A stretch of 64,000 bases of DNA from Escherichia coli (GCF_030013595.1 NZ_CP122771.1), one strand, 5' to 3'. Shown: positions 6,351 to 59,339, counted from the first letter of the stretch. The notes: generated by a model from the letters alone, not told the origin. A program made the numbers and translations.

Positions 6351-6979
6351 GATGCCGGGGGCTGATTGCCCTGCTGATATGGGGGCAGAGTGTGGCCGCC
6401 GCCGATCTTGGTACCTGGGGCGATCTGTGGCCGGTAAAGGAGCCGGACATGCTGACGGTGATCATGCAGCGCCTGACGGCACTGGAGCTGTCCGGTGAGA
6501 TGGGCCGGAAAATGGATGTCTTTAAGGAGCGGGTGATCCGCAACAGTCTGCGGCCCCCTGCCGTGCCCGGTATCGGACGCACGGAGAAATACGGTAGCCG
6601 GTTGTTTGACCCGTCCGTCAGACTGGCTGCGGATATCCGGGATAACGAAGGGCGGGTGTTTGCCCGTCAGGGTGAAGTGATGAATCCGCTGCAGTATGTT
6701 CCTTTTAACCAGACGCTGTATTTCATCAATGGCGATGATCCGGCGCAGGTGGCCTGGATGAAACGCCAGACGCCGCCCACACTGGAGAGCAAAATCATCC
6801 TCGTGCAGGGCAGTATCCCGGAGATGCAGAAGTCTCTGGACAGCCGTGTTTACTTTGACCAGAACGGTGTGCTCTGCCAGCGCCTCGGCATTGATCAGGT
6901 CCCGGCACGGGTGAGCGCCGTTCCCGGCGATCGCTTCCTGAAGGTGGAATTTATTCCGGCAGAGGAGGGCAGAAAATGA
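6347..6979 (+). CDS. traW: TraW, pilus assembly protein
   Basis: ATG at 6347 (MRCRGLIALLIWGQSVAA signal peptide); synteny. Confidence 0.85.
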   Translation: MRCRGLIALLIWGQSVAAADLGTWGDLWPVKEPDMLTVIMQRLTALELSGEMGRKMDVFKERVIRNSLRPPAVPGIGRTEKYGSRLFDPSVRLAADIRDNEGRVFARQGEVMNPLQYVPFNQTLYFINGDDPAQVAWMKRQTPPTLESKIILVQGSIPEMQKSLDSRVYFDQNGVLCQRLGIDQVPARVSAVPGDRFLKVEFIPAEEGRK

Positions 6980-7968
6980 AGCGAAGCCTGTGGCTGCTGA
7001 TGTTATTCCTTCTCGCCGGTCATGTCCCTGCAGCGTCTGCGGATTCTGCCTGTGAGGGGCGTTTTGTAAACCCGATCACGGATATCTGCTGGAGCTGTAT
7101 TTTCCCGCTCTCGCTGGGCAGTATCAAAGTCAGTCAGGGTAAGGTCCCCGACACGGCGAACCCGTCGATGCCCATTCAGATTTGTCCGGCACCGCCGCCG
7201 CTGTTCAGGCGTATCGGGCTGGCCATTGGTTACTGGGAGCCGATGGCGCTGACGGACGTCACCCGGTCACCGGGATGCATGGTGAACCTGGGCTTCAGCC
7301 TGCCGGCTTTTGGTAAAACGGCACAGGGAACGGCGAAAAAAGATGAGAAGCAGGTGAACGGGGCGTTCTATCACGTTCACTGGTACAAATACCCGCTGAC
7401 GTACTGGCTTAACATCATCACATCGCTGGGCTGTCTGGAAGGTGGTGACCTGGATATCGCTTATCTTTCTGAAATTGACCCCACCTGGACGGACAGCAGC
7501 CTGACCACCATTCTCAATCCGGAAGCTGTCATCTTTGCCAATCCGATAGCACAGGGAGCCTGCGCAGCAGATGCGATTGCCAGCGCCTTTAATATGCCTC
7601 TCGATGTTCTGTTCTGGTGTGCCGGTTCGCAGGGAAGTATGTACCCGTTCAATGGCTGGGTGAGTAATGAGTCCAGTCCGTTGCAGTCCTCCCTGCTGGT
7701 CAGTGAACGCATGGCGTTCAAGCTGCACCGTCAGGGCATGATTATGGAAACCATCGGGAAAAATAACGCCGTCTGTAATGAATATCCGTCCCCAATCCTG
7801 CCCAAAGAACGCTGGCGTTACCAGATGGTGAATATGTATCCGGACAGCGGGCAGTGCCACCCGTTCGGGCGCAGCGTGACCCGCTGGGAAACCGGGAAAA
7901 ATCCGCCCAACACAAAGAAAAACTTCGGCTACCTGATGTGGCGTAAACGTAACTGTGTTTTCCTGTAA
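6976..7968 (+). CDS. traU: TraU, pilus assembly/DNA transfer protein
   Basis: 330 aa with signal peptide; synteny. Confidence 0.9.
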   Translation: MKRSLWLLMLFLLAGHVPAASADSACEGRFVNPITDICWSCIFPLSLGSIKVSQGKVPDTANPSMPIQICPAPPPLFRRIGLAIGYWEPMALTDVTRSPGCMVNLGFSLPAFGKTAQGTAKKDEKQVNGAFYHVHWYKYPLTYWLNIITSLGCLEGGDLDIAYLSEIDPTWTDSSLTTILNPEAVIFANPIAQGACAADAIASAFNMPLDVLFWCAGSQGSMYPFNGWVSNESSPLQSSLLVSERMAFKLHRQGMIMETIGKNNAVCNEYPSPILPKERWRYQMVNMYPDSGQCHPFGRSVTRWETGKNPPNTKKNFGYLMWRKRNCVFL

Positions 7969-7993: not shown

Positions 7994-8455
7994 ATGTATA
8001 AACAGGCAACAGAATTAATGCTGAACTTTAAAGACCGCATTCTGATTAAGGGGGAAGAAGATACCGGCAAGTCAACTCTCCTGACTGAAATAAGAATCAG
8101 TGATAGTGATTCCCGGTATTACAACTTTAAAACTCTTAACTCTGCGGGGTATAACCAGCTTTGTGATGAAAATATTGATGATTTTGATTTTCTGAATACA
8201 CCTGAAAAGACGTTAATCCTTGATGGAGTCAGGCTGTGTGAAAAGAAAATGACATCAAAAGTTATCAGGTTAATTAAACAGGCCAGAAAATATCATAAAC
8301 GCCTGGTTGTGGTTGCAGACTCATGTGAGTCTGAGTTTATCGAACTGTTGTTTGATGGTGTTATTGCATTGTCCTTCAATTCTGACAGAGAAAGGAGCTG
8401 CAATGTTTATACGCCATCAAGGTGTCGTAATACAGATAATATTTATGCCAGGTAA
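7994..8455 (+). CDS. Hypothetical small P-loop NTPase/kinase-like protein, non-canonical insert in tra operon
   Basis: 154 aa; Walker A-like GEEDTGKST and Walker B-like LILDG; AAGGA 8 nt upstream of ATG; AT-rich relative to flanks; paralog of ORF 32396-32860. Confidence 0.5.
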   Translation: MYKQATELMLNFKDRILIKGEEDTGKSTLLTEIRISDSDSRYYNFKTLNSAGYNQLCDENIDDFDFLNTPEKTLILDGVRLCEKKMTSKVIRLIKQARKYHKRLVVVADSCESEFIELLFDGVIALSFNSDRERSCNVYTPSRCRNTDNIYAR

Positions 8456-8484
8456 ATGTGTAAACAAAAACAGAGGAGGGTGTA

Positions 8485-8937
8485 ATGAGTAATAATATAA
8501 AATATGGCTCCAGAATACTTGATATGGGTGTTCTGCTGGAGATGAAAGCGCTTGTGAATGCAAATGGTGGTGTGTCACGGTGCATTATGGAGTGCCGGCA
8601 GCTTGCCTGTGAGGTCCGTCATTCGCAACAATTACTGGATAAGCTGTCATGTATTGACGACTGGCTGTGCCGGTTTTCCTCAATAATGTATCACCGTTTT
8701 GATAAAGAACAGATTCAGTGGCGGGAGGATGTGGACAGGAATTATCCCAGAGAAAAAGTTTATATTTTCAGTCCCGATGATGTCTCCGTCCATAATAATG
8801 ATATTAAAGACTCTGCCAATAACACATCAGGAATAACCGTGTCGGTTACAGCCAGTAAAATATTTGCAGGTCAGAAAGAGTTTGATGCTTTTTTAAAACT
8901 GGCAGAAAAACTGAGAGAAAACCCTACGGGTAATTAA
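8485..8937 (+). CDS. Hypothetical protein, second gene of traU-trbC insert
   Basis: 150-aa ORF with GGAGG-like RBS (cagaggagggtgtaATG); Cys-rich N-terminal half; no motif recognised. Confidence 0.45.
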   Translation: MSNNIKYGSRILDMGVLLEMKALVNANGGVSRCIMECRQLACEVRHSQQLLDKLSCIDDWLCRFSSIMYHRFDKEQIQWREDVDRNYPREKVYIFSPDDVSVHNNDIKDSANNTSGITVSVTASKIFAGQKEFDAFLKLAEKLRENPTGN

Positions 8938-30145: not shown

Positions 30146-30367
30146 GTGATAAAGATGAATGGATTCAGAAACAGTTCACGGAACGGTCAGGTCTGGTGCT
30201 GGCAGCGTGCCGGAAGCCGGGCCGTTATTCTGGAAGTCAGTGGTCGCTGGATGGAAGCGGCAGAAGCATGGCGACGGGCTGCCAGTGTTGCACCCCGGAC
30301 AGACTGGCAGCAGTTTGCCCGAAAAAGGGCTGAACACTGCCACCGGCGCTGCCGGGGAAGGGTGTAA
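30146..30367 (+). CDS. Hypothetical small basic protein
   Basis: 73-aa ORF downstream of finO; coding status uncertain. Confidence 0.3.
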   Translation: MIKMNGFRNSSRNGQVWCWQRAGSRAVILEVSGRWMEAAEAWRRAASVAPRTDWQQFARKRAEHCHRRCRGRV

Positions 30368-30653
30368 CGAAAAAAGCAGCCTTCATTACTCCAGGTATTC
30401 AGAAGGCTGAATAATGCATGAGATTTTTCTTTTTTATATCTGGCCTGGCAGTATGACCAGTCAGCAGTCATTATCACAGGATTATTGCTGTATTAAGTAA
30501 TAGCGTGCTGTTTTGTGATTGATTTCATAAAACAAGACGTCGTTTAATATGCGCCTGAATATTCACGAGGGAAGTCTTTCTTTTTATATGGTGCTCCCGG
30601 AAATAAAATATTTTTTGTTATTGCTCACCCTGTTATGAATAAAAGGTAAAAAC

Positions 30654-31331
30654 ATGGAAGAAAATAATACGAGTACAGATAAAAACACCCTGACAGCCCT
30701 TATTGATTATGAAAACTGTGGCAGCCTGAAAAATATTTCCCTTGAGCAGTATGGGGAACTGATTATTTTTGTCGGGCCACAGCAGAACGTCGTTGTTCTT
30801 CCTGCAGACTCTTTTCCTGAAGGTGCGAGAATCACTATCAGGCAGGTGAGTGGTGTGTCCAGGAATAATGTCGATTTTCATCTTGTTCTGGAGCTGGGGC
30901 GGATAAGCTGTTGTGCAGCAGGGAAAGATAAAACATACCACATCATTTCATCGGATAAGGGATATGACGGTGTTATCAGGACGCTGAAAGAAGCCGGTAT
31001 TACCTGCATTCGTCGTGATGTACCGGAAAGTATTGCTGCTGCCGGTGAGTCTGGTGCAGACAAAAGTAACTGCCTGAAACAACCTTCTGTTCCTGAAAGT
31101 GATATCGTCAGCCGTTGGGCAGGAAAGCTGCAGCAGATAGCCGGCAGCGGAGCCGGTAATATGCCTGTGTCCGTCGAAACATTTAATAATTATTTAAAGT
31201 CACACATGCGTGACGAATGGAACAAAACCCGGGCAGTGGCGATAAGGAATGAACTGGTTCGTCGGGGAGTCACAGAAGTCAGGGAGAAAAAGATAATCTG
31301 GAAAAAGGCGAAAAAGGAGAATAAAGCATGA
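30654..31331 (+). CDS. NYN/PIN-like (LabA-type) nuclease-fold protein
   Basis: 225 aa; N-terminal IDYENC and later SSDKGYDGVIRTLKEAG resemble NYN signature positions; AT-rich promoter region upstream. Confidence 0.5.
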   Translation: MEENNTSTDKNTLTALIDYENCGSLKNISLEQYGELIIFVGPQQNVVVLPADSFPEGARITIRQVSGVSRNNVDFHLVLELGRISCCAAGKDKTYHIISSDKGYDGVIRTLKEAGITCIRRDVPESIAAAGESGADKSNCLKQPSVPESDIVSRWAGKLQQIAGSGAGNMPVSVETFNNYLKSHMRDEWNKTRAVAIRNELVRRGVTEVREKKIIWKKAKKENKA

Positions 31332-31647: not shown

Positions 31648-32241
31648 ATGGTGAAACTGATTATTTTTATTCTCATTGTTCTGATTATTGCAGCGTTACT
31701 TATCCGGATTATCCTCAGAAGTGTAAATCAGCATTCTCCTTTGCTGATGCAATTGCATGCGGCAGGTATACGGACCGGTGATGCAGAGCGAATACTGTCC
31801 AGCGGTGAATACTGGCAACGTCAGAAGACGCTGCTGACAGAAAGGGAAGTCAGTTTTATGAAAGGACTGTTCAGAATTGTGGATATGAAGCGGTGGTATC
31901 TGTGTCCGCAGGTACGGGTCGCGGATATCGTCCAGCTGAACGAGAATATCCGGCCACGATCACGCCAGTGGTGGCAGTTATTCAGAATGGTGTCTCAGTG
32001 GCATGTTGATGTGGTTATCGTTGAGCGGCGTTCGTTCAGTATTGTTGCAGCAGTAGAGCTGGATGATGCCAGCCATTTACGACCGGAACGCAGACGCCGG
32101 GATATTCTTCTGGAAGAGGTTCTGAGGCAGGCTGGTATTCCGTTGCTCAGAAGCCACGATGCCAGAAAACTGCTGCAGATGACCGGAGAATGGCTGAATA
32201 CAACAGGGGCTGATCAGCAGTCCCCGGAACATCGTAGCTGA
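31648..32241 (+). CDS. Membrane-anchored DUF2726-like (restriction-endonuclease-fold) protein
   Basis: 197 aa; N-terminal TM helix; HVDVVIVER...AVELDD resembles a PD-(D/E)xK-type core. Confidence 0.5.
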   Translation: MVKLIIFILIVLIIAALLIRIILRSVNQHSPLLMQLHAAGIRTGDAERILSSGEYWQRQKTLLTEREVSFMKGLFRIVDMKRWYLCPQVRVADIVQLNENIRPRSRQWWQLFRMVSQWHVDVVIVERRSFSIVAAVELDDASHLRPERRRRDILLEEVLRQAGIPLLRSHDARKLLQMTGEWLNTTGADQQSPEHRS

Positions 32242-32312
32242 CGCCTTCGCGTTGCTCAGTTGTCCAACCCCGGGAGCGGGAAAAAGCAAGTTTTCCCCGC
32301 TCCCGGCGTTTC
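32239..32312. repeat. Conserved hairpin-containing intergenic motif, copy 2
   Basis: Shares flanks with 20193-20252; perfect stem ccgggagcggg/cccgctcccgg; partial third copy (gacgccttcg) at 32889-32898. Confidence 0.6.
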
Positions 32313-32395
32313 TGTAATAAAAAACGGGAAATGGTGGTCACAGAGTAAATGCCGGAACCACCTGTACCCAAACTTTATATAATAATGGTGAATAT

Positions 32396-32860
32396 ATGAA
32401 ATATGATGATGTATCAGAATTGATGATTAAGCGTGAACACAATATTCTTATTATGGGGAATTCTGCCTCCCACATTGATAAATTTTTTAAGGGATATTCT
32501 ATACCAGGTTCTAAATATTATGATTTCACTCAGATTAACAGTGATTCAGATGTAGAGAGAAATGAGCATGCTGTCTCATTTATCAGGGATGCAATGAATA
32601 GTGAAGAGCACACAATCATTTTTAATTGTGTTGGGTGGCATGATTTAGGTGGTGGATCAGCAGTATCACAGTTTGCAATGATGGTCAGAAAATTTGGTAA
32701 ACAACTTATTGTCGCTGTAAGTGAAAAGGATGCCATCAAATTAAAAGATAACTTTAATATTATTGGAACGTTGTCATATGGTAAAGAAAATTTTATTGCC
32801 ATGAGTCATACGAAAAGCGAGTTAACTGGAGGGAAATGTCGGTACCGGATTAAAAATTGA
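32396..32860 (+). CDS. Hypothetical protein, degenerate-P-loop paralog of ORF 7994-8455
   Basis: 154 aa; aligns with 7994-8455 product (ELM, ILI.G, YY.F..NS, TLILDGV/TIIFNCVG, KRLVVVA/KQLIVAV) but Walker A replaced by GNSASHIDK; AT-rich. Confidence 0.45.
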   Translation: MKYDDVSELMIKREHNILIMGNSASHIDKFFKGYSIPGSKYYDFTQINSDSDVERNEHAVSFIRDAMNSEEHTIIFNCVGWHDLGGGSAVSQFAMMVRKFGKQLIVAVSEKDAIKLKDNFNIIGTLSYGKENFIAMSHTKSELTGGKCRYRIKN

Positions 32861-33116
32861 TGTAAATAAAAAGCATACTTATTGGCTGGAGTGACGCCTT
32901 CGTGCTTCTGTAGTAAAAAGCGGGAAAGGCAGGTAATAGTCAGCAACAGGGAATGTGGTATTATCGCGGCGGGTGTCTGAGCCTTTCTGGTTCAGGCAAG
33001 ACGCAGGTACCAGAAATGCGAAGACCCCACTCGTTAATCCATTAACTCGTGAGGCCTGCATGAAGTACCTTAACACTACTGATTGTAGCCTCTTCCTTGC
33101 AGAGAGGTCAAAGTTT

Positions 33117-33266
33117 ATGACGAAATATGCCCTTATCGGGTTGCTCGCCGTGTGCGCCACGGTGTTGTGTTTTTCACTGATATTCAGGGAACGGTTATGT
33201 GAGCTGAATATTTACAGGGGAAATACAGTGGTGCAGGTAACTCTGGCCTACGAAGCACGGAAGTAA
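33117..33266 (+). CDS. srnB: Hok-family type I toxin (SrnB/PndA-like)
   Basis: 50-aa peptide MTKYALIGLLAVCATVLCFSLIFRERLCELNIYRGNTVVQVTLAYEARK; overlapping upstream leader ORF analogous to mok. Confidence 0.8.
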   Translation: MTKYALIGLLAVCATVLCFSLIFRERLCELNIYRGNTVVQVTLAYEARK

Positions 33267-33549: not shown

Positions 33550-33798
33550 ATGTCGCAGACAGAAAATGCAGTGACTTCCTCATCAGGTACAAAGCGAGCA
33601 TACAGAAAAGGTAATCCTCTGACGCTTGCAGAACGTCAGCAGGCATCCCTGGCAAGAAAACGAGCTACACATAAAGAACTCAGAGTGTTCATTCCTGCTG
33701 CGTTAAAAGCGCAATTGCAGGTGATGTGTGAAGCTGAGGGCGTTACCCAGGCTGAGATGATTGCCGAACTGATAAAGCAGAAGAGTGCTTTTAGCTAA
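33550..33798 (+). CDS. copB: CopB/RepA2 repressor of the RepFIIA replicon
   Basis: 82 aa starting [11 protein letters not shown], similar to R1 CopB; directly upstream of repA1. Confidence 0.85.
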
Positions 33799-40014: not shown

Positions 40015-40378
40015 TTTTCTTTTCCGACAAAGGATGTCGCCGGGCTCCTCTTTTTACTGCGCCGGCTGACGCGGCGCGGCAGGAACGCTGCCTGTGGTCA
40101 GTATCCCGCGTCCGGCCGGGCACGGGACGGGCGCTTTTACCGCTCCCGGCTGGCGTCGGTGGCAGTGTACGCCAGCCCGTCGCCCTTTTCTGATGAACGC
40201 CCTTCAAGCCGCTTTCGCGGCATATCCTCGCCGTCAAACAGACGACGGCTGCGGTATTCCACGGTCGGCCTGACCCGTTATCGGACGCGGTGAACAGCCC
40301 ACAGGCCGCGGGGAACGGGCGCCACAGGGGCGCCCTCCCGGTGCTCTCTGCTGAAGCAGAAGTGAGAGGAGAATTCCC
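40015..40378 (+). repeat. Leading-region direct repeat family B, copy 1 (about 360 bp, includes RBS of downstream gene)
   Basis: Near-identical to 41338-41687; begins after stbB terminator hairpin; ends at ATG of 40379 ORF. Confidence 0.85.
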
Positions 40379-41337: not shown

Positions 41338-41687
41338 TTCTTTTCCGGTAAAGGATGTCGCCGTGCTCCTCTTTTTACTGCGCCGGCTGACGCGGCGCGG
41401 CATAAACGCTGCCTGTGGTCAGTGTCCCGCGTCCGGCGGGCACGGGACGGACGCTTTTACCGCTCCCGGCTGGCGTCAGTGACAGTGTACGCCAGCCCGT
41501 CGCCCTTTCTGATGAACGCCCTTCAAGCCGCTTTCGCGGCATAGCCTTGCCGTCAAACAGACGACGGCTGCGGTATTCCACGGTCGGCCTGACCCGTTAC
41601 CGGACGCGGTGAACAGCCCACAGGCCGCGGGGAACGGGCACCACAGGGGTGCCCTCCCGGTGCCCTCTGTAAGAGAAGGAGGCTTTT
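41338..41687 (+). repeat. Leading-region direct repeat family B, copy 2
   Basis: Near-identical to 40015-40378; ends at ATG of methyltransferase gene. Confidence 0.85.
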
Positions 41688-53566: not shown

Positions 53567-55138
53567 TTACTGAGAGGTCAGATCAACTTTCCAGGGCAAC
53601 AGATCGCGTACCCGGTTTGCCGGCCAATCCTGGATATGCTCAATGACGTAACGCAGCCATTTTTCTGGTTCCACATTGTTCAGACGGCATGTGCCGATCA
53701 GCGAGTACAACACCGCCGCATGTTCGCCACCGCTGTCGGAACCCGCGAAGAGCCAGTTTTTCCGGCCTACGGCCACTCCCCGTAAGGCGTTCTCTGCGAT
53801 GTTGTTGTCGATTTCCACCCAGCCATTACTGCAGTACACGTTCAGGGCCTCCCACTGTTTCAGCAGGTATGCGAACGCTTTTGCCGTATCCGAGTGACGC
53901 GACAGTGTTTTCATCTGTTCCTGTATCCAGTCATACAGTGACTGCATCAGTGGAGCCGCTCTGGCTTTTCTTGCTGCCAGACGCTGTTCTGCTGAACATC
54001 CCCGGACTTCTGCCTCGATGACATACAGTTCACCGATACGCTGCAGGGCTTCCGTGGTGATGTCGGTTGGCACTCTTGCATGCACATCGTGGATTTTTCT
54101 CCGGGCATGGGCCATACACGCGGCTTCCGTTATTCTGCCGGATTCGTATAACGCCCGGTAACCACCGTAAGCATCTGCCTGAAGCACACCGCTGTAACCG
54201 GCCAGGTGATTCTGTGGATGGATACCTTTCCGGTCCGGGCTGTACGCGAACCAGACCGCCGGGGGCATCTGTGAACCGGCGTTACGGTCATCACGGACAT
54301 AGACCCACAGCCGGGCAGTTCTTGTTTTACCACTGCCCGGCTCCTGGACCGGAACGGGGATATCATCCGCATGGACTTTACCGGGCATCAGCACATACTG
54401 GCGCAGCACGTCATACAGCGGCTCCAGCAGTTCAGCAACGGCACCGGTCCAGCGCCCCAGCGTGGCGCGGCTCAGTTCCACGCCCTGACGAAGGTATATT
54501 TCTGACTGGCGGTATAACGGCAGATGGTCTGCATACTTCCCGGTGACGATATGAGCCAGAAGCCCCGCTCCGGCATAACTGCGTGCAATGGGTTTTGAAG
54601 GTACTGGTGCCTGCACGATATGGTCGCACCGGCAACAGGCCAGTTTCGGACGTTGTGTTTCGATAACCTTAAAAGCGCTGCTGATAAGCTCCAGTTGCTC
54701 TGACACATCACACCCCAGAGGACTGAGGTCACCACCACAGGCCGGGCAGCATTCCTCTTCCGGCCGGATGACCCGGGTTTCACGGGGAAGTGAGGCCGGT
54801 AACGGCTTACGGGCTGAAGACTGGCGCAGGGCGGATGGCAGTACCGGGTCATATTGCTCATCCAGCGTTTCCGCCATTTCTTCCTGAAGTGCGCTGATTC
54901 GCTCCTGGGCTTCCTGTATCTGCCGTTCGGTTTTAGCGCGAAGTTTTTCTGAGCTTTTACCGAACTGCATGCGCTGCAGTTTCGCAACCAGCGCCTTCAG
55001 CCGGTTGATTTCGGAAGCATAAGCCGCCACCCGCTGTGAGAGCAGGCGGTTGTATTTCGCCATCTGGCGGATGGTGTCCTGTTGCGTCTGCAACAGTGCC
55101 CGCAGGCGGGCATTCTCATGAGCAAGTGAGGTGTCCAT
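53567..55138 (-). CDS. IS66-family transposase (OrfC)
   Basis: 523 aa with N-terminal coiled coil, CxxC...CxxC zinc motif and DDE-type core. Confidence 0.9.
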
Positions 55139-55157
55139 ATCCTCACTTTACAACGGG

Positions 55158-55505
55158 TTATATGCGGATGCCAGCGCGTTCCGTTCGTTTCGGGTGCTTC
55201 CAGTCGATGCCTTCGAGAAGCATGGACAACTGAGCCGGAGTAAGGTGAACCTTTCCATCGCGGGTGACCGGCCAGACGAAGCGGCCCCGCTCCAGGCGTT
55301 TGGTGAAGAGGCACAGTCCGTCACTGTCAGCCCACAGCACTTTTATCTGGTCACCCCGGCGTCCGCGGAAGATGAACAGATGCCCGGAGAACGGGTCATC
55401 CTTCAGGACGTTCTGAACTTTTGAGGCCAGGCCGTTAAAGCCATTTCGCATATCGGTGATACCGGCAACCAGCCAGATACGCGAACCGGCAGGGAGAGAT
55501 ATCAT
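55158..55505 (-). CDS. IS66 OrfB (TnpB-like accessory protein)
   Basis: 115-aa ORF with the conserved IS66 OrfB-like N-terminus. Confidence 0.85.
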   Translation of the reverse strand: MISLPAGSRIWLVAGITDMRNGFNGLASKVQNVLKDDPFSGHLFIFRGRRGDQIKVLWADSDGLCLFTKRLERGRFVWPVTRDGKVHLTPAQLSMLLEGIDWKHPKRTERAGIRI

Positions 55506-56155
55506 CAGTGGCTGCTCCCTTTCATTTCGCGGATAAGTGTCTGTAATAACGCCGGTGTCAGTTCACCTTTCAGCCTGAGAGTTCCGGCCGGCAGAACCAG
55601 CTCGCAGCACAGACTGTCTGGCAGTGTATTTATCTGTTCAGGTATCTGCACTGGTGCCGGGATTTTATTATCCGGCTCCGGAGTTAACGTCACGGGAAGT
55701 AGCGATGTTTCATGTTCGCCGGGCGGTTGCAGGCCACCGTTACGCCAGAGATGCCGCCAGTTAAAGAGCAGGTTATCGTTAATTCCATTCTCTCGAGCTA
55801 TTTGTGCGACACAAGCACCGGGTAAAAGAGTTTGCTGAACCAGTCTCCATTTAAACTCCGGTGAAAATCGGTTCCGGCGGGGTTTCTCTGCTTTCACAGG
55901 CTGAGTCACGGTCGGGGCTGAAGGGTATCGCCCCGGGAAAAGAGCCCGGGCCAGTTGCCCGCAGGAATATTCACCGGAAAGAGGCCAGTCAGTGAATACC
56001 TGGTGAAATCGCCTCACCAGAGAAAAAATGGCGGTTTTGCTGACACCGGTCTGCGCAGAAATGCGCGGGTACGACAGTGACTCGTCAAATCTCAGCTGTA
56101 GCACACGCAGGATCAATTCCGGATTGTCTGCCAGTACCGCTTTTCGTGCATTCAT
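55505..56155 (-). CDS. IS66 OrfA-like HTH protein
   Basis: 216-aa ORF start-overlapping orfB; longer than typical OrfA. Confidence 0.7.
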   Translation of the reverse strand: MNARKAVLADNPELILRVLQLRFDESLSYPRISAQTGVSKTAIFSLVRRFHQVFTDWPLSGEYSCGQLARALFPGRYPSAPTVTQPVKAEKPRRNRFSPEFKWRLVQQTLLPGACVAQIARENGINDNLLFNWRHLWRNGGLQPPGEHETSLLPVTLTPEPDNKIPAPVQIPEQINTLPDSLCCELVLPAGTLRLKGELTPALLQTLIREMKGSSH

Positions 56156-56444
56156 CTTAAATGTCCCTTTACTGCGAAAATGGACATTAGTATCGGAAAC
56201 AGGAAAGGGAGGCGAAAGACGGTTTAAATGAGACGGTTACCGTGATGCGGCAACAATCACATGGATTTCCCGTGAACGGTCTGAATGAGCGGATTATTTT
56301 CAGGGAAAGTGAGTGTGGTCAGCGTGCAGGTATATGGGCTATGATGTGCCCGGCGCTTGAGGCTTTCTGCCTCATGACGTGAAGGTGGTTTGTTGCCGTG
56401 TTGTGTGGCAGAAAGAAGATAGCCCCGTAGTAAGTTAATTTTCA

Positions 56445-56510
56445 TTAACCACCACGAGGCATCCCTATGTCTAGTCCACATCAGGATAGCCTCTTACCGC
56501 GCTTTGCGCA
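56445..56510 (-). ncRNA. sok: Sok-like antisense RNA region (approximate)
   Basis: Position antisense to mok/hok leader directly upstream of hok. Confidence 0.3.
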
Positions 56511-56524
56511 AGGAGAAGAAGGCC

Positions 56525-56683
56525 ATGAAACTACCACGAAGTTCCCTTGTCTGGTGTGTGTTGATCGTGTGTCTCACACTGTTGATATTCACTTATCTGA
56601 CACGAAAATCGCTGTGCGAGATTCGTTACAGAGACGGACACAGGGAGGTGGCGGCTTTCATGGCTTACGAATCCGGTAAGTAG
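56525..56683 (+). CDS. hok: Hok/FlmA type I toxin
   Basis: 52-aa peptide [52 protein letters not shown] read directly (below ORF-track length cutoff); overlapping mok-like frame 56467-56679. Confidence 0.85.
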
Positions 56684-56994: not shown

Positions 56995-59339
56995 GGGTCG
57001 GGTAGCAGCGGCACATTGCTGCGCCGCCGCCCCCTAAGAACGGAGCGTGCGAGTTTTCCCGCACTCCGCTCAAGCCTTTATAAGTGCTTTCGGTGAGCAC
57101 CGGCTTCCCTGCTGTGTAACTGTCGGTGGCAGTTCGGATGTAACAACTCGAGATTGGTCAGTTCGTCACTGCCGCCCATAACTTTCCTGATCCGGTGATG
57201 TATATTCCATCCGGTCTGGTTGGTTATGAGTTGTCCGCACTGCGGACAGTGTTTCCCCTGCCTCTTCCAGAGTTGAACTACTGTCTTCATCTTCTTTGAT
57301 TTGCCTTTCCAGATTAGATCCAGACGACGTTCAAAGTAGATTTCCATTCCGGGGGTGTATGGTGTTGCTTCGCCTTTGATTTTTATATGGCGCTTTATCG
57401 GTGTTTCCATTGCCCGGAAGAGTGTCAGAATTTTCCCTTCCGGGGTTATGGCTTTAAAGATCCAGCGCCTGCCTTCAAAGGAGAAGTATCGTCCGGCGAT
57501 CCACCGCAATCCTTTCCGGGGATGCCGTCTTACACACCATCGCCATATAGCTCGCCAGATTTGGGTGTCGACATAATTAAATGTTTCTTTCGCCACGACG
57601 TGTCGGTGATAGGTAGCCCATCCCCGGATCACCGGGTTTAGCTGGCCTATCAGTTTCCATGCCGGGAGCGTCGGATTGCGTTTAATTATTTCTCTGACTT
57701 TACAGAGGAAGTTCTTCAGGTTTTTCTTCGACGGTTTAATCAGCATTTTACCGTTGTACTTCCTGACGTTCTGCCCTAAAAAGTCGAAGCCTTTATCTAT
57801 ATGTGTGATCGCTGTTTTTTCTTCCGACAGTTCCAGCCCTCGTTCGCGCATGAAAGCTGCAATCAGTGGTCTGACCTCATTTTCCAGCAATTCACGGGAG
57901 CTGCCTGAACAGATGAAATCATCAGCATATCTCACATAATTCACCTGGTGCTTTGCACTGTGATAACCACTTTTCCTGAACGTTTGCATCAGTTCCTTCT
58001 CCAGTCCGTCCAGAGCCATGTTGGCGAGAACAGGGGATATGATGCCTCCCTGCGGTGTCCCGCTGTTCGTATGGTTAAACACGCCTCTTTCCATGTAACC
58101 TGCTTTCAACCATTTTTTAAGCAGTCTCCTGTCCATCGGAATATGGGAAAGCAGCCAGTCATGGCTGATGTTATCGAAACACCCTTTAATATCGCCCTCC
58201 AGTATCCATTTGGGCGATACTTTCTGGCTCATCCGCAGAAAAATGGACTCAATGGCGTCATGCGTGCTGCGCATTGGTCTGAAACCATAGCTGTTATGGT
58301 CAGCAGTGGTCTCGGATACGGGTTCCAGAGCCAGCAGCCACAGTGCCTGCATGGCCCGGTCCCTCATTGTGGGTATGCCCAGCGGTCGCGTTTTGCCGTT
58401 TGATTTTGGGATATGTATTCGCCGTAGTGGCTGTGGCCTGTAACCACACAGATTCAGGCTGCATATTCCTTCCCATTTCTCCTTCGGTGTGTGCCATATT
58501 TTTCCGTCAATACCGGGTGTCCTTTTACCGGTATTTTCAGTTACACGCCTGACAGCCACGGCTTTGCCGGAGAATGAGCGGGTGAGGATGCGCTGTAGTT
58601 CTCTGACCTGCCGCCATTGTTGCTGTCGGGTTGCCTTTGCAATCCGTAACTGTAGCTTTCGCACCCGGGCATGGCATGCTTTCCAGTTTATGGTGTGCCA
58701 GCCTGTCGGGTGGGGTATCGTGGACACACTGATGTGTGTATTCATCTCGCTGATATCCTTTTGACTGCTTTACAGCTTTTCATGCAATTAAAGACCAGAC
58801 GGAAGTCTGCCCGCTTTCGCGTCGGGGAACCTGCCCCGTATCCCGGTTATTACGGCCGGGCATTCGCTTTTTCCGTCCTCCTATGCCCGCACCGCTAACA
58901 GTGTTCCTTGCGGTTCACCTGCCTGTGAGGCAGCGATACGGGTTTACCAGGTTCCGCTTAACATACAGAGGGTCAGGGCGGGTTCTGTCTCTTCACCGGG
59001 GGTCTCTGCGCCCATGTGCTCCCTGTGCGCGAGGTAGCAACCGGACCCCGTACCTTTTGGTTCAGGCCTGTCAGCATCTTTGGCCTGTTGCCGATAACGG
59101 TGTTTATCAACAGTTCACATGTGTTAACCCTTCTGACCAGCCTTGCTCTCCTGCCGCATGATGCTTGCAGCAAGGTAAAGCCCCTCACGGGGCTTTACCC
59201 GGGCTGACGCCCGGCTCTCGTTGTCCCGGGAGCTTCAGACCCCGCCGTTGCCGGCAACGCCTGTCCCGGTAGGCTACAGCTAATGGGATAGCTGGTTTTA
59301 TCAATGTAAAACAATACGTTAAGCGACTTCCTGTCGCAC
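56995..59339 (-). mobile_element. Group II intron, boundaries +/-10 bp
   Basis: 5' end GTGCGACAGG on minus strand; domain V-like hairpin GAGCGGAGTGCGGGAAAACTCGCACGCTCCGTTC near 3' end (+ coords about 57030-57063); encodes RT/maturase/HNH ORF. Confidence 0.8.
57078..58745 (-). CDS. Group II intron-encoded reverse transcriptase/maturase with HNH endonuclease
   Basis: 555 aa; RT motifs incl. YADD (VRYADDFIC); C-terminal CPQCG...H..H HNH. Confidence 0.9.
   Translation of the reverse strand: MNTHISVSTIPHPTGWHTINWKACHARVRKLQLRIAKATRQQQWRQVRELQRILTRSFSGKAVAVRRVTENTGKRTPGIDGKIWHTPKEKWEGICSLNLCGYRPQPLRRIHIPKSNGKTRPLGIPTMRDRAMQALWLLALEPVSETTADHNSYGFRPMRSTHDAIESIFLRMSQKVSPKWILEGDIKGCFDNISHDWLLSHIPMDRRLLKKWLKAGYMERGVFNHTNSGTPQGGIISPVLANMALDGLEKELMQTFRKSGYHSAKHQVNYVRYADDFICSGSSRELLENEVRPLIAAFMRERGLELSEEKTAITHIDKGFDFLGQNVRKYNGKMLIKPSKKNLKNFLCKVREIIKRNPTLPAWKLIGQLNPVIRGWATYHRHVVAKETFNYVDTQIWRAIWRWCVRRHPRKGLRWIAGRYFSFEGRRWIFKAITPEGKILTLFRAMETPIKRHIKIKGEATPYTPGMEIYFERRLDLIWKGKSKKMKTVVQLWKRQGKHCPQCGQLITNQTGWNIHHRIRKVMGGSDELTNLELLHPNCHRQLHSREAGAHRKHL

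Follow-up and report, generated by a model that had tools for sequence, protein, structure and literature searches.

The stretch of Escherichia coli DNA analysed here (64 000 nucleotides, GCF_030013595.1, NZ_CP122771.1; hereafter the window) represents an IncF conjugative plasmid (MOBF, MPF_F) and carries two small P-loop-like genes, designated A and B. Gene A (32396–32860, + strand, 34% GC) encodes a 154-residue, degenerate member of this mini P-loop family and lies outside the tra operon but at the distal end of its region, separated from finO upstream by ∼2.4 kb, the local order being traX, finO, a small open reading frame (ORF), a PIN-domain gene, a DUF2726 gene, A, hok/sok and repA2/copB. 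A locus of 100% identity occurs in pO26_2 (NC_013362.1), a plasmid of E. coli O26:H11, and RefSeq lists its ORF as hypothetical protein WP_000872610.1. Gene B (7994–8455, + strand, 37% GC) encodes a 153-residue 'ATP-binding protein' (RefSeq) with the motifs GEEDTGKST and LILDG and is embedded in the tra operon, as an earlier note on this DNA had stated; its insertion point lies between traU and trbC. Both genes form AT-rich islands in a backbone of 52–55% GC. The analyses described below make it highly probable that A is a nucleotide-site-dead, selected branch of a tiny family of mini P-loop proteins which is found on plasmids only.

BLASTP aligned the products of A and B over 149 residues with 23% identity (E 9e-8), and the sequence blocks which the earlier note had seen to be shared by the two proteins are real. 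The Smith–Waterman score of the pair was 83 as against a mean of 29 (standard deviation 5) for shuffled sequences, a value reached by none of 3000 shuffles (z 10.8), which disposes of the objection that the alignment is no better than chance. Among all ORFs of the window, B was the best non-self match of A. Pairwise profile alignment, a check proposed in the same note, was carried out with hhalign using the A-clade alignment (13 sequences) and the B-clade alignment (11 sequences), and yielded a probability of 98.4% and an E of 6e-15 over 123 columns. These comparisons confirmed that A and B are true homologues.

The Walker A motif GEEDTGKST of B corresponds to GNSASHIDK in A, with the changes Gly to His, Lys to Ile and Ser to Asp, so that the replacement of GKST by HIDK had been read correctly. 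In addition to this change, the Walker B motif LILDG of B is replaced by IIFNC in A, whereby the Mg-coordinating Asp becomes Asn. HIDK together with the Walker B Asn was found in every A-lineage allele examined, down to alleles of 53–60% identity, and is fixed in this lineage. From these substitutions we infer that A lacks canonical nucleoside triphosphate (NTP) binding or hydrolysis, and since its nucleotide-binding site is degenerate, a non-catalytic role, as already suggested for this paralogue, appears to be the natural reading. The closest Walker-intact relatives of A are IncX-like members of the family, with 29–30% identity as compared with 23% for B.

When a profile hidden Markov model built jointly from A and B was run exhaustively over 1.84 billion representative proteins, it gave 59 matches, 39 of them at E ≤1e-10. 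The profile retrieved only the A/B family, and all full-length matches measured ∼140–165 residues. The family comprises ∼150-residue single-domain proteins with a RecA-like (ASCE) P-loop core, encoded on enterobacterial plasmids only. A itself shows the three-layer α/β fold with a parallel sheet and a P-loop position between β1 and helix 1, and consists of one 154-residue domain without the multidomain architecture (helical or winged-helix domains, sensor repeats) of STAND proteins. In AFDB, template modelling (TM) scores >0.6 were obtained only for enterobacterial plasmid proteins, whereas TsaE did not exceed 0.5. The earlier note had proposed that the distribution of the family among plasmids and phages be checked; no match to A or B was obtained when 50 697 phage records were searched by tblastn, and nothing links the family to phages.

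No match to A was found in Pfam, NCBIfam, PHROGs or PADLOC, and the family of A and B is unnamed and has no Pfam or NCBIfam model. The best kinase match of the family profile in the PDB was guanylate kinase with an E of only 0.016–0.018, and no Pfam or NCBIfam kinase family was matched; the family is therefore not a well-characterised housekeeping kinase, and its description as uncharacterised was upheld. B and some of its relatives matched nSTAND3 (PF20720) and AAA_14 (PF13173) marginally and over the span from Walker A to Walker B (E 1e-3 for B with AAA_14; 4–7 of 25 family members with nSTAND3, best E 6.5e-6), whereas A matched neither, and the helical lid, winged-helix and sensor domains of STAND and AAA+ proteins are absent from the whole family. 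RecA-like and superfamily 4 (SF4) helicase ASCE cores (T7 gp4 helicase domain 1cr0, DnaB, Twinkle, KaiC and RadA) share 7–19% identity with the family, but, unlike these, its members are only ∼150 residues long and have neither DNA-binding loops nor extra domains. The KaiC-like archaellum motor protein FlaH/ArlH, which is archaeal, has ∼230 residues and an intact Walker A, was no more similar than other RecA-like proteins. An origin from Pif1/RecD-like helicases was considered and rejected, because the best PDB match (8bns, a Pif1-like 'AAA ATPase', E 3e-4) spans only 31 residues around Walker A. Matches of B to DS8_antiphage (E 1.7e-5; 22.8 bits as against a cut-off of 790), mad8 and ABC-F were likewise discarded as generic P-loop segments lying far below the respective cut-offs.

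Alignment of 25 family sequences, including the A clade, revealed that Y42, F45 and K102 are invariant and that L17, G20, E71, I75, V79, S88 and I105 are conserved in at least 90% of them. The motifs specific to the family are non-catalytic, namely KY[YF]DF on β2 and S...F..ARKxGK[RQ]LIV on helix 4 and strand 4, and A retains both, as KYYDF and S..QFA..ARKxGKxLIV, respectively. The catalytic motifs, on the other hand, are loosely held. Walker A is degenerate not only in the A clade but also in the members P0081, P0087, P0095 and P0117, and because each of the latter four has a Walker-intact protein as its closest relative, there were no fewer than five independent losses of the motif. The Walker B change from Asp to Asn is shared by A with P0095, P0084 and the backbone protein of IncI2 plasmids described below. 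The Glu following β2 in RecA-like cores is T in B and Q in A, the latter lacking Walker A and Walker B as well; as this residue is present in only about half of the intact members, it was not used as a defining feature of the family. Such a pattern, in which catalytic motifs vary while Y42, F45 and K102 do not, points to a function that would rest on a conserved surface for binding or assembly, with nucleotide use being optional. Repeated loss of catalytic motifs under continued selection suggests a binding or switch role, which could modulate conjugation or plasmid competition.

Selection on A was assessed in six alleles from different plasmids (the window and the loci L016, L017, L018, L019 and L002). 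The ratio of non-synonymous to synonymous substitution rates (dN/dS; Nei–Gojobori) was between 0.22 and 0.41 in all 15 pairs, over a dS range of 0.04–1.9. Full-length ORFs were retained in alleles which are only 53–60% identical, and 41 columns, family motifs included, were invariant across the 13 A-clade sequences. Even the degenerate site is kept in this clade, as GNSAS.ID.FF and IIFNC. The exact A protein is recorded on 878 contigs, and 633 of the 637 places where A was found in E. coli are plasmid-borne. Taken together, these data are typical of a protein that is translated and moderately constrained by purifying selection, and A is not a dead gene.

All genomic contexts of family members (RefSeq 'ATP-binding protein', e.g. 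WP_149541902.1) that were examined belong to plasmids and, for the most part, to transfer regions in which the gene lies on the same strand as its neighbours. Walker-intact members, B among them, occur sporadically as AT-rich insertions that lie within or next to conjugative transfer clusters of the F-type tra, IncI2, type IVb pil, VirB-type and IncX-like kinds. Family members were located in a type IVb pil operon between the genes for a PilQ-type ATPase and PilR, in a VirB-type type IV secretion system (T4SS) between virB2 and virB3/4, in T4SS clusters beside the genes for topoisomerase III (TopoIII) and the coupling protein, and in an operon divergent from nikA and relaxase. In IncX-like plasmids, the family gene follows those for the type IV coupling protein and TrbM and precedes those for a thermonuclease (SNase), an AAA protein, TopoIII, Hha and H-NS. 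In IncI2 plasmids of the mcr-1 type, it is placed directly between virD4 and pilN, an arrangement represented by ∼450 PLSDB records at ≥80% identity. The IncI2 member of pMRY16-002_4 (NZ_AP017614.1; L025:5941–6477) has 178 residues, an intact Walker A and the Walker B change from Asp to Asn; its annotation as 'sigma 54-interacting transcriptional regulator' (WP_001220543.1) is erroneous.

In the window, traU (6976–7968) is followed by B, an ORF of 150 codons (8485–8937, + strand, 41% GC) and trbC. B and this ORF, which was co-inserted with it, constitute an AT-rich two-gene insertion (7994–8937) between traU and trbC (55% GC); they occur together in ∼270 PLSDB plasmids, while pO26_2 lacks the pair. 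The product of the 150-codon ORF had no match in Pfam, NCBIfam, PHROG or PADLOC. It was considered as a conserved partner and rejected, since it is unlike the ORF following an IncX-like member and the neighbours differ among contexts. SNase genes were observed beside family members in IncX-like plasmids (L020:5489–6118) and in some IncF plasmids (L019:1937–2398). The two SNases are 57% identical, the gene order is reversed, and genes for Hha and H-NS lie near both. An operon partnership of SNase with A was dismissed, because the gene order differs and SNase is absent from the window, leaving only a shared accessory neighbourhood.

These findings allow a mechanism to be proposed for A. As A would be unable to bind or hydrolyse NTPs in the canonical manner, it would work by binding, i.e. 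through protein–protein contact, either by oligomerising or by occupying the partner class or site used by its Walker-intact relatives. Given that intact members adjoin virD4, pilQ, virB11, topoisomerase or relaxase genes, the partner would most plausibly belong to the conjugation apparatus or take part in DNA processing. In that case A would be a dispensable accessory factor with a modulatory role, probably that of an inhibitor or dominant negative. This mechanism is put forward as a tentative suggestion drawn from motifs and gene neighbourhoods, whereas the explanation as a whole, in which a selected, nucleotide-site-dead family member may act as a binding modulator of conjugation, is in our opinion somewhat favoured. 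The plasmid groups whose transfer regions contain the family, with a wrong annotation or none (IncF, IncI2 mcr-1 and IncX-like), account for much of the movement of antibiotic resistance in Enterobacteriaceae. If a binding or switch role holds true, the family would provide a handle on plasmid spread; otherwise, A is one more dispensable accessory gene.

Several observations weigh against this explanation. At least 80% of gene A was held by only 382 of the 797 PLSDB records matching it and by 314 of 615 complete E. coli genomes. With about half of the carriers harbouring truncated or frameshifted copies, any function of A must be easily lost, and A is probably a dispensable accessory gene. Furthermore, A is located in the finO–hok accessory region and not in the transfer operon, so that its link to conjugation depends on its relatives, one of which (P0117) has no T4SS gene within 6 kb. 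Nor was a sigma-70 promoter called immediately ahead of A by a simple promoter scan. The literature, searched by accession, gene context and transposon screens, yielded no description of A or of its IncI2 homologue, and in the gene table of the transposon screen of TP114 (IncI2), traK (virD4) is directly followed by pilN, the homologue being unlisted and hence unscored.

Examples of damaged copies are the IS1-truncated A of pCTXM15_000837 and the frameshifted A of p45407_1 (+1 at nucleotide 44). In common multiresistance IncF plasmids, such damage takes the form of a cut at an IS1 end (L026:2001–2228) or of a frameshift by a 1 bp insertion at nucleotide 44 (L027:1201–1666). A could accordingly be regarded as a decaying relic, that is, a former ATPase gene drifting towards loss and devoid of present function, and the destruction of both Walker motifs, the AT-rich, foreign nature of the DNA, the missing call of a consensus promoter and the high share of damaged copies, unlike B which is intact in 227 of 230 records, would all agree with this. 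However, a gene in decay is hard to reconcile with dN/dS values in the above range in every pair, even those with a dS >1, or with the persistence of full-length ORFs in strongly diverged alleles, the conservation of the invariant columns and of the degenerate site itself, and the number of contigs carrying the exact protein. We therefore hold a relic to be unlikely.

Another alternative, which is also rather doubtful, sees in A an inter-plasmid weapon, a dominant negative of the fertility-inhibition type directed against co-resident IncI2, IncX-like or B-carrying IncF plasmids. Its target would be the homologous accessory protein of the rival or the target of that protein, for instance a coupling protein. 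According to published work, fertility-inhibition factors are encoded by accessory genes of patchy distribution and rapid movement and have coupling proteins as their usual targets, and among IncF, IncI and IncX plasmids there are several inhibitors still to be identified (PMC5696584). A resembles them in that it is patchily distributed, readily lost and placed in a finO-distal accessory region, while intact members are backbone-associated in the transfer regions of IncI2 mcr-1-type plasmids, right after virD4, and of IncX-like plasmids. PifC, Osa, FipA and Tir are likewise patchy accessory genes whose products bind transfer proteins of rivals (PMC5696584), and A is similar to them in distribution and neighbourhood, but they belong to unrelated protein families and the likeness is one of distribution and function by analogy only. 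Support for this alternative is purely circumstantial, the homologue is missing from the TP114 gene table so that the screen gives no phenotype for it either way, and A is only 22–30% identical to homologues of the potential targets, which is weak for the poisoning of a subunit. That A evolved naturally as a dominant-negative subunit, a nucleotide-site-dead copy of a mini-ATPase associated with conjugation, which IncF plasmids use from their finO–hok accessory region to sabotage the transfer machinery of those rivals (IncI2 mcr-1-type, IncX-like, B-carrying IncF) that need intact members, is quite improbable. If the dominant-negative reading were nevertheless true, A would represent a new class of fertility-inhibition factor, and several T4SS and type IV pilus (T4P) conjugation systems would contain, in the intact family, an accessory component that has so far escaped notice.

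The earlier note had also hinted that A and B might be related as regulator and effector or through a decoy role, and this part of it found no support. In PLSDB, blastn detected A in 797 records, B in 284 and either gene in 1060, which by inclusion–exclusion leaves ∼21 records with both. At least 5000 PLSDB records share the IncF flanks of A, and up to ∼45 records with both genes would be expected under independence, so that co-carriage is not enriched. In pO26_2, A is present and B is absent, traU being followed straight by trbC. A regulator, decoy or partner of the tra-embedded B, e.g. an inactive subunit of a hetero-oligomer, might be imagined on the grounds that the two proteins are homologous and share the ARKxGK motif of helix 4 and strand 4 with its possible oligomer contacts. 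Degenerate RecA-like subunits are known from eukaryotic complexes with obligate partners, namely Elp5 (Elongator Elp456) and the RAD51 paralogues RAD51C, XRCC2 and XRCC3, but these bear no sequence relationship to A, and A does not co-occur with its paralogue. As only ∼21 of 1060 carriers hold both genes, pO26_2 has A alone and A is nearer to the IncX-like members than to B, a dedicated A–B pair is unlikely; considering also the low identity of the two proteins, the distance of 24 kb between the genes and their different transcription contexts, we regard it as very improbable.

It is equally far-fetched that A is an anti-defence decoy which mimics the NTPase module of host STAND/AAA immune proteins and thereby blocks their assembly, since the weak nSTAND3 matches of some family members and the sub-threshold DS8_antiphage and mad8 matches, the latter two seen with B only, concern generic P-loop segments and A matches no PADLOC, Pfam or NCBIfam entry, and since A lies outside the leading region, where early-expressed anti-defence genes cluster, and family members are situated in transfer operons, which are expressed in donors.

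The junctions of the locus were compared with the IncF plasmids CP063715 and CP058015, which lack A. Alignment of both junctions together with base composition delimited an AT-rich segment of ∼600 bp (32340–32935, limits approximate; 35% GC) containing gene A. In the A-less plasmids, the hok promoter region (GGTAATAGTCAGCAACAGGGAATGTGG) adjoins without a gap the DUF2726 boundary element, in which a GC-rich hairpin is preceded by TGACGCCTTCG and followed by TTCTGTAnnAAAAnnnGGnAAA. In its generic form the element reads TGACGCCTTCG ... TTCTGTA(A/G)TAAAAA(A/G)CGGGAAA. The window contains a complete copy to the left of A (32239–32331, + strand), made up of the TGA stop of the DUF2726 gene and CGCCTTCG, the hairpin and TTCTGTAATAAAAAACGGGAAA. 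The GC-rich hairpin of this copy (32266–32310) has arms of 20 nucleotides and a predicted RNA fold of −39.6 kcal/mol (z −3.8); it has no clean T-tract and the terminator scan made no call. A second copy (32892–32927, + strand), directly upstream of the hok promoter-like site, comprises TGACGCCTTCG, TGC and TTCTGTAGTAAAAAGCGGGAAA. The notion that A lies between hairpin copies thus stands as far as two copies of the boundary element flank the gene, whereas a hairpin is present in the left copy only.

The TGA of the boundary element serves as the stop codon of the gene preceding hok, which is the DUF2726 gene in this plasmid and a 127-residue allele of A in L019 and L002. The upstream neighbours of A vary among plasmids (DUF2726, thermonuclease, a primase-like ORF or a PIN-associated ORF), and because they vary while the element is shared, the A locus is, on the evidence of these alignments, a recombination mosaic with a conserved junction. 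Comparison with the A-less plasmids showed that A was acquired by insertion, and site-associated acquisition, as proposed in the earlier note, agrees with the position of A at a hotspot of recombination or insertion, which is recognisable by the repeated boundary element. The content of the finO–hok region as such was also seen to vary among IncF plasmids, with SNase, Hha, DUF2726, NYN/PIN and primase-like ORFs. Elsewhere in the window, two near-identical GC-rich repeats of ∼180 nucleotides with hairpin-forming segments were observed at 40060–40240 and 41380–41560, 1.3 kb apart; their sequence is unrelated to the boundary element flanking A, and they may be the 'hairpin motif' meant in the earlier note.

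The DUF2726-domain gene upstream of A extends from 31648 to 32241 (+ strand), its stop codon being the first triplet of the boundary element. Downstream of A and separate from it lies the hok/sok toxin–antitoxin locus (32937–33266, + strand), with a hok promoter-like site at 32937–32964 (promoter scan), an Rfam sok region at 32971–33127 (RF01794, 98 bits) and the annotated hok coding sequence at 33117–33266; repA2/copB (33550–33798) is located distal to it. The PIN-domain gene (30654–31331) is part of the finO–hok mosaic region and corresponds, as we presume, roughly to the map position of tir in R100. Between finO and the PIN-domain gene, a strong Rfam match to AS-pc02, an antisense RNA known from plasmid pHK01, was found on the − strand (30264–30447, 190 bits). 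A second locus of the hok/sok type is present at 56351–56527 (Rfam sok, 88.9 bits), preceded by three consecutive − strand ORFs of 523, 115 and 216 codons (53567–56155) whose layout is like that of an insertion-sequence gene set. Finally, Rfam group II intron matches on the − strand (RF00029, 56997–57073; RF02012, 59146–59295) flank an ORF of 555 codons (57078–58745), presumably the intron-encoded reverse transcriptase.

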